Assembly (NCBI GenBank): GCA_003162335.1
Contig: PMMG01000057.1
Coordinates: forward strand, 991-47,237
Length of the DNA stretch: 46,247 nucleotides
Reading direction: 5' to 3'
DNA from: Dehalococcoidia bacterium
GTDB taxonomy: Bacteria; Chloroflexota; Dehalococcoidia; Dehalococcoidales; Fen-1064
The first letter of the stretch is position 1. Every line of letters begins with the position of its first letter. Under the pieces are notes generated by a model. That model did no database searches, was not told the origin of the DNA, and worked only from the letters and a program-made list of their open reading frames with translations. A program made the position numbers and the translations under genes. Below, in pieces: positions 18,266 to 45,925 of the stretch.

Positions 18266-19744
18266 ATGACAACTTCTGATAAAAAAACGGGGAAAAGCAT
18301 TCTCGAACAAATCGCCCGACGTGTCATGCAAGAACAAGGGTTCCTGCCGGATTTTTCTAGTGCCGCGCTTGAAGAAATGGAGCAGATTCAAAATACCATT
18401 GCTCCGGTAACGGCAGTAAAAAAAGATTTGCGCCAACTCCTTTGGGCATCAATTGACAATGACGATTCCAAAGACCTTGACCAGTTGACCGTTGCGGAAG
18501 TGCTGCCTGGAGGTGCCGTCAAGGTTTATGTGGCTGTCGCCGATGTGGATACTCTCGTAAAAAAGAACGATGCGATTGATGAGCATGCCCATCAGAACAC
18601 GACTTCTATATATACTGCTGGAAAAACTTTTCCCATGCTTCCGGAAAACCTATCCACTAATTTGACATCGCTTAATTATCAGGAAGACCGCCCGGCGATA
18701 ATCGTCGAAATCACGGTCAGCGATTCCGGTGATATACAAGGTTCAGACATTTATCCAGCTGTGGTCAGAAATCATGCCAAGCTGGCATATAACGCGGTAG
18801 CAGCCTGGCTGGAAGGTAAAGAAACTGCTCCGGATAAATCTATAGTTGTCGACGCTGCTCTGGCCGGGAACCTCCGGATTCAGGATACGGTCGCGCAAAA
18901 ACTAAGGGCAAAGCGGCATTTACGCGGTGCTTTGGAATTACAGACTCTGGAAACCCTGCCAATCTTTGATGGAGACGAGATAAAAGACTTACAAATTGAT
19001 GAGACAAACCGGGCGAAGGAAATTATCGAAGATTTTATGATTGCGGCAAACGATGTCACGGCGGTTTTTCTTAAAGGAAAACGAATACCATCATTGCGGC
19101 GTGTCGTCCGTTCTCCGAAGCGCTGGGACCGCATTGTAGAAATTGCCGCCCAGCATAACTTTCAATTGCCTGTTGCACCGGATTCGAAGGCACTGGCAGA
19201 TTTTTTGGTCAAACAGAAAGCGGCCGACCCTCTCCGTTTTCCAGACCTGTCGCTCGTTATCATTAAACTGCTCGGCTCCGGCGAATATGTCGTTGAACTG
19301 CCGGATGAGACGGCGCCGGGCCACTTCGGGCTTGCGGTCAAAGATTACACCCATTCCACTGCACCAAACCGCCGCTTTCCCGACCTGATTACGCAACGGA
19401 TCCTGAAAGCAACTCTGGGCGGAATGTCCCAACCATATAGTCAGTCCGAATTAACGGAACTGGCGCAACATTGCACACTGAAAGAAGATGACGCCAACAA
19501 AGTAGAACGTCAGATCGCCAAATCGGCCGCTGCTATGCTGCTTTCTTCCAGGGTTGGTAATATTTTTGATGCCATCTGCACCGGTGCTGCGGACAAAGGA
19601 ACATGGGTACGTATCTTCCAACCGCCGATCGAAGGCCGTTTGCTCCATGGTTTTGAGGGAATTGATGTCGGTAGCCAGCTGAAAGTGAAACTTATTCACG
19701 TCGATGTGAATATGGGGTTTATCGATTTCGAAAAGGTAAACTGA
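18266..19744 (+). CDS. RNB-domain exoribonuclease (RNase II/R family) with C-terminal S1-like fold
   Basis: 492 aa. Contains IDNDDSKDLDQL and HFGLAVKDYTHSTAPNRRFPDL, which are RNB catalytic motifs. Confidence 0.8.
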   Translation: MTTSDKKTGKSILEQIARRVMQEQGFLPDFSSAALEEMEQIQNTIAPVTAVKKDLRQLLWASIDNDDSKDLDQLTVAEVLPGGAVKVYVAVADVDTLVKKNDAIDEHAHQNTTSIYTAGKTFPMLPENLSTNLTSLNYQEDRPAIIVEITVSDSGDIQGSDIYPAVVRNHAKLAYNAVAAWLEGKETAPDKSIVVDAALAGNLRIQDTVAQKLRAKRHLRGALELQTLETLPIFDGDEIKDLQIDETNRAKEIIEDFMIAANDVTAVFLKGKRIPSLRRVVRSPKRWDRIVEIAAQHNFQLPVAPDSKALADFLVKQKAADPLRFPDLSLVIIKLLGSGEYVVELPDETAPGHFGLAVKDYTHSTAPNRRFPDLITQRILKATLGGMSQPYSQSELTELAQHCTLKEDDANKVERQIAKSAAAMLLSSRVGNIFDAICTGAADKGTWVRIFQPPIEGRLLHGFEGIDVGSQLKVKLIHVDVNMGFIDFEKVN

Positions 19745-19759
19745 AATTTTAACCACGCG

Positions 19760-19789
19760 TTGACAATAATTATAATTAGCTTCTATAAT
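19760..19789 (+). promoter_or_regulatory. Sigma-70-type promoter (TTGACA, 18 nt spacer, TATAAT)
   Basis: Consensus hexamers at 19760-19765 and 19784-19789, directly after the RNB gene stop. Confidence 0.6.
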
Positions 19790-19819
19790 TAAGAAAATCA
19801 AGTAAGTAGACAGGGAGTT

Positions 19820-19945
19820 TAAACGTGCCGAACTGGAATCAACGCAAAAGTCAAAGAGAAACATCGACCATGATGATGCCTCGGGCTTGGTGTACCGCCA
19901 GTTCGGGGATCATGTTGTAATCCCTTCCCATGGTAAAGCTGAACC
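19820..19945 (+). promoter_or_regulatory. Structured 5' leader (unclassified riboswitch or attenuator candidate) of the homocysteine genes
   Basis: A 9-bp long-range helix pairs ccgaactgg (19828-19836) with ccagttcgg (19898-19906). An antiterminator pairing joins cgggcttggt (19882-19891) to accaagcccg (19943-19952). A mini-ORF MMMPRAWCTASSGIML lies at 19870-19920. Confidence 0.5.
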
Positions 19946-19980
19946 AAGCCCGGAAACAATTGTTTCCGGGCTTTTTGTTT
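19946..19980 (+). terminator. Intrinsic terminator inside the leader
   Basis: aagcccggaaaca-at-tgtttccgggctt forms a 13-bp stem, followed by tttt(g)ttt. It lies 47 nt upstream of ATG 20027. Confidence 0.8.
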
Positions 19981-20026
19981 ATTGACAGAATACTGAGAAC
20001 CAAATATCATACGGTGAAGGAGAAAA

Positions 20027-21235
20027 ATGGCTAAGACAATTGAAGAGATAAATCAGAAAATAAAAAAAGGTGAAGCAGTAGTTTTTACAGCCGAAGAAAT
20101 CATCGGCGTTGTGAAGGAAAAAGGGCTGAAAGAAGCAGCCGCAGAAGTTGATGTGGTGACTACCGGGACTTTCGGCCCGATGTGTTCATCCGGCGCTTAT
20201 TTTAATATCGGACATTCAAAGCCGCGCATCAAACTCGGCGGCGGGCGATCATATCTGAACGATGTGCCAGCTTACACCGGCCTGGCAGCCGTCGACCTGT
20301 TTCTCGGCGCGACAGCCACTCCGGATGATGACCCGCGCAATAAAATACATCCTGGTGAGTTTAACTACGGCGGCGGGCATGTGATCGAAGAGTTGGTGGC
20401 GGGCAAAGATGTAAGACTGGAGGCTACCGCTTACGGCACGGATTGTTACCCGCGTAAGAAACTGGAAACCTGGATCAATATCAAAGATCTCAACGAAGCG
20501 GTATTGTTCAATGTCAGAAACGCCTACCAGAATTACAATGTTGCGGTTAACCTATCGAATAAAACGATCTATACATACATGGGGGTGCTGAAACCAAACC
20601 TCGGCAACGCCACTTATTGCAGCGCCGGTCAACTCTCGCCGCTGCTAAATGACCCATATTATAAGACGATCGGCATCGCCACGAAGATATTCCTGGGCGG
20701 CGGTGTCGGTTACGTGGCCTGGCAGGGAACGCAGTTTAATCCCACCGTAGCCAGAAGTGAGAACGGTGTGCCGAAAGGCGGCGCCGGCACATTGGCAGTT
20801 ATCGGCGACCTGAAACAGATGAGTCCGCGCTTTCTTGTCGGCACGAGTATGCTGGGTTACGGCCCAACACTGACTGTCGGCATCGGGGTGCCGATTCCGA
20901 TATTATCCGAAGAAATTCTGAAATACACCACCGTCACCGACGACCAGATCATCGGCACGGTGATTGACTACTCGGATGCCTATCCCAACCGCAGAAACGA
21001 GCCGGTCGGTGAAGTGACTTACGCCCAGTTAAAGAGCGGGAAAATCACACTGCAGGGTAAAAAAGTCCCTACGGCGTCCCTCTCCAGTTATCCTCGGGCA
21101 GTGGAAATTGCCAATACGCTGAAGGATTGGATAAAGACTGGTAAATTTGAGTTGACCCAGCCGGTCGCTTATTTACCCGGCCCTGAAACCGGTCTCACTT
21201 TCAAACCTTTAAACGAAAGGCCTATCGAACGTTAG
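20027..21235 (+). CDS. Homocysteine biosynthesis protein, COG1900/DUF39 family (MA1821-like, without CBS pair)
   Basis: 402 aa with GAAGGAG RBS. The N-terminus MAKTIEEINQKIKKGEAVVFTAEEI... and GTFGPMCSSGAYFN are typical of the family. It is paired with the NIL-ferredoxin gene as in methanogens. Confidence 0.75.
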   Translation: MAKTIEEINQKIKKGEAVVFTAEEIIGVVKEKGLKEAAAEVDVVTTGTFGPMCSSGAYFNIGHSKPRIKLGGGRSYLNDVPAYTGLAAVDLFLGATATPDDDPRNKIHPGEFNYGGGHVIEELVAGKDVRLEATAYGTDCYPRKKLETWINIKDLNEAVLFNVRNAYQNYNVAVNLSNKTIYTYMGVLKPNLGNATYCSAGQLSPLLNDPYYKTIGIATKIFLGGGVGYVAWQGTQFNPTVARSENGVPKGGAGTLAVIGDLKQMSPRFLVGTSMLGYGPTLTVGIGVPIPILSEEILKYTTVTDDQIIGTVIDYSDAYPNRRNEPVGEVTYAQLKSGKITLQGKKVPTASLSSYPRAVEIANTLKDWIKTGKFELTQPVAYLPGPETGLTFKPLNERPIER

Positions 21236-21280: not shown

Positions 21281-21688
21281 ATGGTAGATAAAAAAATAGT
21301 GTTGCACTTTCCAAAAAGACTGGTAGACAGGCCGATCGTTTCTCACCTGATCAAAGACCACGATCTCGAATTCAATATTCTCAAGGCCTCCGTCACTCAG
21401 GACGAAGAAGGCTTGATGGTGCTCGAACTAAAAGGTAAACAGGAAGAATATGACAAAGGCATTGCTTACCTGAAGGAGGCGGGCGTGATTATCGAATCTC
21501 TCAGTCAGAATGTCATCCGTAACGAAGAACGCTGCACTCATTGCGGCGCTTGTATCACCATCTGTCCGGTGGGCGTGTTTGAACTGGACACAACGACACG
21601 CCAGATCAAATTCCAAGAGAAAAAGTGTATTGCGTGCGGAATCTGCATTAAAACCTGCCCGCCGCGGGCGATGGAACTGCATTTCTAG
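21281..21688 (+). CDS. NIL domain plus 2x[4Fe-4S] ferredoxin protein (MA1822-like partner of COG1900)
   Basis: 135 aa. The N-terminal NIL-like domain is followed by CTHCGACITICP and CIACGICIKTCP. Confidence 0.75.
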   Translation: MVDKKIVLHFPKRLVDRPIVSHLIKDHDLEFNILKASVTQDEEGLMVLELKGKQEEYDKGIAYLKEAGVIIESLSQNVIRNEERCTHCGACITICPVGVFELDTTTRQIKFQEKKCIACGICIKTCPPRAMELHF

Positions 21689-45779: not shown

Positions 45780-45925
45780 GCAAGATATGCCTGAACCGTC
45801 TCTCCTTTCCAAACACGGGAGGCGCAGGCGTTTTCACCTGTGCCCTCGGGACTTATTCAGTCCGGCGGTTGACATTCCGTAGCCAACGGCATTAGGAATG
45901 ACAACTCGAAGAGCTTTTTAAATGA
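45780..45925 (-). promoter_or_regulatory. Candidate Moco/Tuco (molybdenum/tungsten cofactor) riboswitch
   Basis: Minus-strand RNA contains ...GUCCCGAGGGCACAGGUGAAAACGCCUGCGCCUCCCGUGUUUGGAAAGGAGAGAC.... The CCGAG, GCCUCCC and GGAAAGGAG blocks are those I recall as the conserved core of the Moco RNA motif. It sits between a consensus promoter and a terminator, upstream of a tungstate/molybdate uptake operon. Confidence 0.55.

Follow-up and report, generated by a model that had tools for sequence, protein, structure and literature searches.

The leader that precedes the HcyBio/COG1900 gene in this Dehalococcoidia genome is probably a ribosome-mediated (leader-peptide) transcription attenuator, which would gauge the supply of methionine by means of three Met codons in tandem. 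The stretch of DNA analysed, here called the window, is 46,247 nucleotides long (contig PMMG01000057.1 of assembly GCA_003162335.1). A comparison with COG1900 loci of named assemblies places its source among the Dehalococcoidales (Chloroflexota) of peat or permafrost. In it, the HcyBio/COG1900 gene and the NIL-ferredoxin gene that follows form the pair of the sulfide-dependent homocysteine pathway, homocysteine being the precursor of methionine. Leader-peptide attenuation is textbook knowledge for Trp, His, Leu, Thr, Phe and Ile/Val but not for methionine, whose genes are usually said to be under SAM riboswitches, T-boxes or protein repressors. To our knowledge, it is established neither for methionine nor for the phylum Chloroflexota. 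The evidence comes from the window and from a collection of 31 distinct versions of the leader in four Dehalococcoidales families, with most of the alignment statistics calculated on 23 of them.

Layout of the leader and its open reading frame

The elements of the locus in the window are as follows.

18266-19744: RNB-family exoribonuclease gene, the upstream neighbour of the leader
19760-19789, + strand: promoter P1, TTGACA-18-TATAAT, consensus score 12/12
19813-19817, + strand: Shine-Dalgarno (SD) sequence GGGAG of the leader ORF, with GTG 7 nt downstream
19825-19920, + strand: leader ORF with GTG start, 31 codons and TAA, MPNWNQRKSQRETSTMMMPRAWCTASSGIML
19828-19836, + strand: segment 1, the 5' strand of helix 1:2, abutting the start codon and containing compensatory pairs
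19842-19852, + strand: weak anti-antiterminator strand, seen in the minimum free energy (MFE) fold, whose partner in the OFF state is strand A
19870-19878, + strand: three Met codons in tandem (conserved ATGATGATG), the proposed regulatory codons
19882-19891, + strand: antiterminator strand A, CGGGCUUGGU, exact complement of 19943-19952
19897-19910, + strand: segment 2, with segment 1 (OFF) and segment 3 (ON) as alternative partners
19920-19934, + strand: segment 3 (AUCCCU ... UGGU), which forms the predicted hairpin 2:3
19943-19957, + strand: T5, of which 19943-19952 pairs with strand A and 19946-19957 is the 5' arm of the terminator
19962-19980, + strand: T3 and U tract, the 3' arm of the terminator being 19962-19973 (12-bp stem)
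19982-20010, + strand: promoter P2, TTGACA-17-TATCAT, an 11/12 match between the terminator and the COG1900 gene
20027-21235, + strand: HcyBio/COG1900 gene (Pfam PF01837, E 5.5e-154)
21281-21688, + strand: NIL-ferredoxin gene (PF09383 and Fer4 domains)

The original prediction, made from the letters of the window, had described a consensus promoter, an intrinsic terminator upstream of the COG1900 gene, a 10-nt antiterminator complement and a separate 9-bp helix, and all four were recovered. P1 matches the consensus at every position, and in 30/30 relatives a site scoring 10/12 or better is found 28-45 nt upstream of the start of the small ORF (sORF); transcription from P1 would begin at about 19796. 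The 12-bp terminator stem (19946-19973) is followed by TTTTGTTT. The antiterminator CGGGCTTGGT (19882-19891) is exactly complementary to ACCAAGCCCG (19943-19952), and the 9-bp helix joins CCGAACTGG (19828-19836) to CCAGTTCGG (19898-19906). The leader folds more stably than its shuffled counterparts (z = -4.6; none of 200 shuffles was its equal), and its identity to the leaders of related genomes is 71-86%.

A mini-ORF had also been described, running from ATG ATG ATG at 19870 to the TAA ending at 19920. Its frame and its run of Met codons are real; its start is not at 19870, as the frame opens at GTG 19825. The weak SD that had been held against a peptide is no longer an objection, because the conserved GGGAG (19813-19817) and the GTG at 19825 serve the same frame and open a longer one. 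In all the aligned relatives GGAG or GGAGG is followed, after 5-8 nt, by a start codon. Among the 31 versions this codon is GTG in 28, TTG in three and ATG in none, which may reflect a structural constraint or a tuning of initiation in a leader that senses methionine. Frame 0 is open in every version (31/31), and the two other frames are interrupted by stop codons in 31/31 and 21/31. Three features expected of a leader-peptide attenuator, namely a conserved SD-led ORF, a run of Met codons and a terminator between the ORF and the gene, are present. This reading, one of the two offered originally, is the one supported.

The ORF is 30-33 codons long across the versions. The two lineages differ by a single in-frame indel of 3 nt, equivalent to one codon 5' of the Met run (15 versus 16 codons), and each of the 22 versions that make up one lineage has an ORF of 102 nt. 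In residues 4-16, every codon position is variable. The block ATGATGATG, by contrast, is invariant in 22/23 aligned versions, the sole exception being ATG GTG ATG; all the versions found later keep the triplet, which lies outside every conserved helix. As residues 4-16 are free to vary and the indel is in frame, yet the frame and the Met run are kept, it is the translation of this ORF, and not its protein sequence, that appears to be conserved: judging from the alignments, selection keeps translation, the run of Met codons and the helix-forming stretches.

The C-terminal end of the peptide behaves differently. Codons 30 and 32 show third-position changes only, and all four synonymous codons are used for Thr and for Pro. 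This pattern hints at a constraint on the peptide C-terminus that goes beyond a simple attenuator model; we can also speculate that synonymous variation near the C-terminus tunes the kinetics of termination at the stop codon. Pfam and NCBIfam profile scans of three leader peptides gave no match, and an exact look-up of eight leader peptides in a collection of 15 billion proteins found none of them. The leader ORF is a gene of 31-33 codons that annotation pipelines have not called.

Alternative folds and the proposed switch

The leader RNA is predicted to adopt two nested folds that are mutually exclusive, in that helix 1:2 and A:T5 cross and so do not coexist in a nested fold. The OFF fold consists of helix 1:2 (19828-19836/19898-19906), the weak pairing of 19842-19852 with strand A, and the terminator T5:T3 (19946-19957/19962-19973). 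In the ON fold, A:T5 (19882-19891/19943-19952) encloses hairpin 2:3 (19897-19910/19920-19934), whose loop contains the last Met codon and the stop codon. The MFE fold of the window also pairs the SD with the sequence after the stop codon (19812-19816/19921-19925); this pairing was set aside, helix 2:3 being better supported across the relatives.

An alignment of COG1900 upstream regions had been suggested originally, and in ours the helices and the Met-Met-Met frame are both conserved. The terminator is paired in 94% of cells, with compensatory changes in 7/12 pairs, and helix 1:2 in 95%, with two compensatory pairs (for example U-A to C-G). For hairpin 2:3, which 31/31 versions are predicted to form, the energies range from -8 to -23 kcal/mol, and compensatory A-U to G-C changes are seen in versions L015, L019 and L106; CAGUU/AACUG becomes CGGUU/AACCG or GCCGGU/AUCGGC in some versions, and the segment 1 partner changes with it. 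The anti-antiterminator has a core of 4 bp (columns 41-44/79-82; window 19849-19852/19884-19887) that is paired in 21-23 of the 23 versions with Y-G variation only, and its pairing outside this core is poorly kept.

The A:T5 helix is paired in 90% of cells in the 23 versions; as it is mostly invariant, its covariation statistics are not significant. Nevertheless, the change of CGG to TGG in strand A (Arg to Trp) tracks a G-to-A change in T5 and a C-to-T change in T3, changes in T5 are accommodated in strand A as G-U pairs, and the CC at 19944-19945, which lies outside the terminator stem, is conserved. These three patterns, drawn from sequence comparison, favour the A:T5 pairing.

We modelled the effect of a stalled ribosome by folding the RNA as it would be before the synthesis of T3, with the leading edge of the ribosome placed 13 nt past the first base of the A-site codon. 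With a stall at the first Met codon, the probability of A:T5 is about 1 in 23/23 leaders, T3 having not yet been made. A ribosome stalled on the second or the third Met codon masks part of strand A, and the probability is then lower; the spacing from the first Met codon to strand A is only 12 nt. In ribosome-free equilibrium folds, strand A stays sequestered in the sequence of the window, whereas the ON fold is preferred in many relatives; the OFF default must therefore rest on helix 1:2 forming first. Full-length folds with ribosome masks favoured the terminator in most leaders. This test did not discriminate between the states and was replaced by the folds preceding T3; in the model, dominance of the terminator in full-length equilibrium folds is as expected of a kinetic switch, and the model needs kinetics.

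The mechanism that we envisage would run as follows. Transcription would start from P1 near 19796, and a ribosome would load at the GGGAG and the GTG at 19825 and read the 31-codon leader. When charged Met-tRNA is low, the ribosome would stall once the first Met codon (19870) has entered its A site, with its leading edge near 19882. It would then have passed segment 1, while strand A, segments 2 and 3 and T5 would be free ahead. Hairpin 2:3 and A:T5 would then form, the terminator would be blocked, and RNA polymerase would enter the COG1900 and NIL-ferredoxin genes (ON). With ample methionine, the ribosome would reach the stop codon (19918) and occupy segments 2 and 3, which lie between A and T5, and this should leave T5 to pair with T3 (OFF). 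In the OFF state, helix 1:2 would lock strand A inside, T5 would pair with T3 and transcription would end at 19974-19980; were no ribosome to load, helix 1:2 would form first, and the outcome would again be OFF. A shortage of methionine would in this way lead to read-through and to more homocysteine synthesis, a logic that fits the biology. However, the role of methionine in initiation complicates any attenuator that responds to it.

A further complication is the second promoter. P2, in the form TTGACA-17-TAnnAT, is found in 24-27 of 30 leaders and is present too at loci without a leader. As P2 lies after the terminator, attenuation only supplements basal expression: read-through from P1 can only add to the level that the conserved P2 provides. 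An mRNA initiated at P2 would have a 5'UTR of about 10 nt. The same type of promoter directly 5' of COG1900 is conserved across the Dehalococcoidales whether or not a leader is present (in the window and at loci L038, L039, L041, L043, L051 and L067-L071); where there is no leader, the -10 box ends about 9 nt from the ATG, and the mRNA would be leaderless or almost so. The alternative that the P2 region is part of another small ORF was rejected, as the hexamers are kept and the spacer is variable.

One lineage has an additional element beside P2. In 10 of 14 leaders of this lineage (L045, L046, L049, L054, L056, L059, L063, L081, L085 and L106), a box CGCCA(A/G)GCC lies between the terminator and P2, 5-6 nt 5' of the -35 hexamer; the window does not have it. 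Like T5, this box is complementary to the antiterminator strand (GGCUUGGCG); it could act as a pairing partner in the RNA of read-through transcripts, or else as the DNA site of a regulator.

Distribution, transcription and competing explanations

The core ATGATGATGYCYYRGGCTTGG of the leader occurs in 39/363 genomes of the order Dehalococcoidales, spread over four families and 15 genera and always as one copy per genome. The reversed pattern, used as a control in the same order, found nothing (0 hits), and a search for the core motif in about 375 genomes from other orders of the class brought no true hit. The sole match with one mismatch outside the order, L143, is GC-rich, has no promoter, SD and GTG start, terminator or COG1900 neighbour, and was taken as chance. 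In every copy with enough flank, the leader lies 172-183 nt from the start of COG1900. The upstream neighbours vary, and include a recombinase, a GH3-like protein, a PHP protein and, on the opposite strand, a class-II aminoacyl-tRNA synthetase. The original prediction had allowed that the terminator might simply be that of the RNB gene, with an independent promoter downstream; since the upstream neighbours differ among genomes, the terminator is to be assigned to the leader, not to the RNB gene, but the independent promoter, P2, does exist. Nothing comparable in the way of further Met-run mini-ORFs was found in the intergenic DNA of this genome; a candidate mini-ORF on contig C132 was discarded because it lies in a different frame.

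The leader is also present in peat and wetland metatranscriptome assemblies. One run contains 19812-19964 alone, and one contig covers 19779-20029 and spans the terminator. In another run, the depth of the leader is about twice that of its flanks; these assemblies demonstrate transcription of the leader at the level of contigs, and carry neither transcript ends nor reliable ratios. A contig from run X31 has an in-frame deletion of three bases at 19870, and represents a population variant with two Met codons instead of three.

As P2 is present, the promoter, sORF and terminator could together be an independent small gene, encoding a small protein or a trans-acting short RNA, with COG1900 transcribed from P2. 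We consider this unlikely. P2 itself, at leaders and at loci lacking them, would suit such an arrangement, as would the strong terminator, the greater abundance of leader RNA than of its flanks in the metatranscriptome contigs and the restriction of codons 30 and 32 to third-position changes. Furthermore, for trpL in Sinorhizobium, the released attenuator RNA and the leader peptide are reported to have functions of their own (bioRxiv 10.1101/606483). However, residues 4-16 are unconserved, unlike those of a functional protein, a plain terminator has no use for the A:T5 alternative or for the chain of helices 1:2 and 2:3, and the leader is kept as a single copy per genome at a fixed distance from COG1900. 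A function in trans would, in any case, be compatible with attenuation in cis.

It is improbable that the leader is an undescribed metabolite riboswitch, for SAM, SAH, Met or Hcy, in which 19828-19836/19898-19906 would be the P1 helix of an aptamer and the ligand would favour the terminator. This was the other original reading, and it has obvious attractions: a closing helix surrounds the antiterminator strand on a terminator/antiterminator platform, genes for a methionine precursor are a context typical of SAM riboswitches, and no SAM-I was found in this genome. The Rfam covariance models, which had been proposed as a route to a known riboswitch class, assigned none. At the gathering score, used for the whole window, no family matched the leader; up to E 10, in 19700-20080, there were only partial matches driven by the terminator and no riboswitch class. 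The scores for Trp_leader (19.9 bits against a cut-off of 41) and Thr_leader (13.1 against 55) come from alignments that both rest on the terminator. The scan of the whole window did find a Moco/Tuco (molybdenum cofactor) riboswitch, RF01055, at 45786-45923 on the - strand (84.7 bits), and at 20 further loci no known RNA family was found upstream of COG1900. Moreover, the interior of helix 1:2 is variable, with its 3-nt indel, and shows no conserved ligand-binding core of invariant unpaired nucleotides except the Met triplet, ATGATGATG being the sole invariant unpaired block. An aptamer would also leave the SD, the start codon and the frame open in all the versions unexplained.

A ligand-sensing arrest peptide (MMMP[RW]AW...SG.M) in the manner of TnaC, SpeFL or plant CGS1, which would stall on free Met or SAM and not in response to tRNA charging, is very improbable. 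The conserved C-terminal half and the purely synonymous changes at codons 30 and 32 are what it would predict, but most of the conserved residues are encoded by RNA helices, and changes at the R/W position go hand in hand with changes in its RNA partners, so that the RNA and not the residue is selected there. In addition, a stall at high methionine on or after strand A would require the opposite wiring. Finally, a T-box-like tRNA-sensing leader with AUG as its specifier codon, for which one could cite the AUG codons in a loop and a UGG in the antiterminator strand, is scarcely credible, as there is no RF00230 match even at E<10, the features of Stem I are absent, and the UGG is paired in A:T5 and not bulged, with a following base that varies between U and C.

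Sister genera and known systems

Other genera of the same family carry a different arrangement before the same gene. In this type-B leader, a Met-rich uORF (..MM..LW.M[RH]CP.GQ..) lies about 130 nt upstream of COG1900 (loci L024, L025, L027-L032, L040, L042, L065, L096 and L103); there is no terminator, a GCCCGNNAGGGC hairpin is present, and no Rfam family matches this leader. The strand AUGCGUUGCCC, whose first codon is Met, pairs with GGGUAACGCAU, in which COG1900 has its SD and start region. The pairing of this helix, which has three covarying pairs, amounts to 89%, and slid controls reach 23-51%. From these patterns, the type-B leader looks like a translational Met attenuator. It would resemble translational attenuation of the ermC type, where a pause of the ribosome on the uORF would melt a helix hiding the downstream SD and start; the pause in type B would fall at Met codons, whereas that in ermC is induced by a drug, and the likeness concerns the sister genera and not the window. 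As two unrelated wirings share Met-rich translation before the same gene, the reading of Met codons would be the signal common to both.

A broader proposal can be built on this, which we put forward as tentative and, on balance, doubtful. The Dehalococcoidales would read methionine purely through the translation of Met-rich uORFs, by two unrelated wirings (a terminator switch and the masking of an SD) at the same gene, and in the first of these the obligatory non-AUG start and the ON-prone ribosome-free fold would give a response to shortage of both initiator and elongator Met-tRNA. If this is true, the dual response would solve the problem that methionine is needed to start, and may explain the presumed absence of Met attenuators.

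The only published suggestion of a Met-dependent leader peptide that we found in the literature is metL, predicted upstream of metNIQ in Streptomyces lividans, for which the authors call termination unclear (PMC8079986). In contrast to the leader described here, metL is leaderless, has scattered Met codons, precedes a transporter and is unrelated in sequence; it was given without comparative or structural support (PMC8079986). With regard to phylum, a survey of 2010, which itself added Firmicutes, described Proteobacteria and Actinobacteria as the only groups with leader-peptide systems known up to then (PMC2965389). The leader of the Dehalococcoidales would extend ribosome-mediated attenuation to the Chloroflexota, through a family of 31 versions in four families of uncultured members of the order, with alternative folds backed by covariation.

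In its role, the leader is comparable to SAM-I (the S-box), which also controls methionine-pathway genes through a terminator and an antiterminator, but which senses SAM directly. A search for SAM-I in this genome (G000) and its family found it sporadically in four related MAGs, of which three have 8-9% contamination and the fourth about 4%, and not in this genome.

The closest parallels in architecture are the trp, his, leu, thr, phe and ilv leaders of E. coli and Salmonella (trpL and hisL, for example). As in the present leader, a short ORF carries a run of codons for the amino acid of the pathway, helices 1:2 and 2:3 form a chain, and an antiterminator competes with an intrinsic terminator before biosynthetic genes. 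The differences are that methionine, which is also needed for initiation, would be sensed here, that the start is always GTG or TTG, and that the antiterminator A:T5 encloses 2:3, whereas in the enterobacterial leaders the antiterminator is 2:3 itself. Furthermore, there is no sequence relation, the host belongs to the Chloroflexota (Dehalococcoidales) and a second promoter follows the terminator. The system is testable, as codon swaps should re-programme the specificity of the leader.

Finally, the ilvB uORF motif of Corynebacterium (uORFC-75-1) was at first a riboswitch candidate and was later recognised as a uORF (PMC11109978). Like the leader described here, it keeps an in-frame start and stop and is enriched in codons of its pathway, with its antiterminator in P1 and its terminator in P2 (PMC11109978); it differs in that its codons are those for Ile, Leu and Val, in its phylum and in its sequence. 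The present leader carries a warning, that riboswitch-like leaders in metagenomic DNA may be translated.
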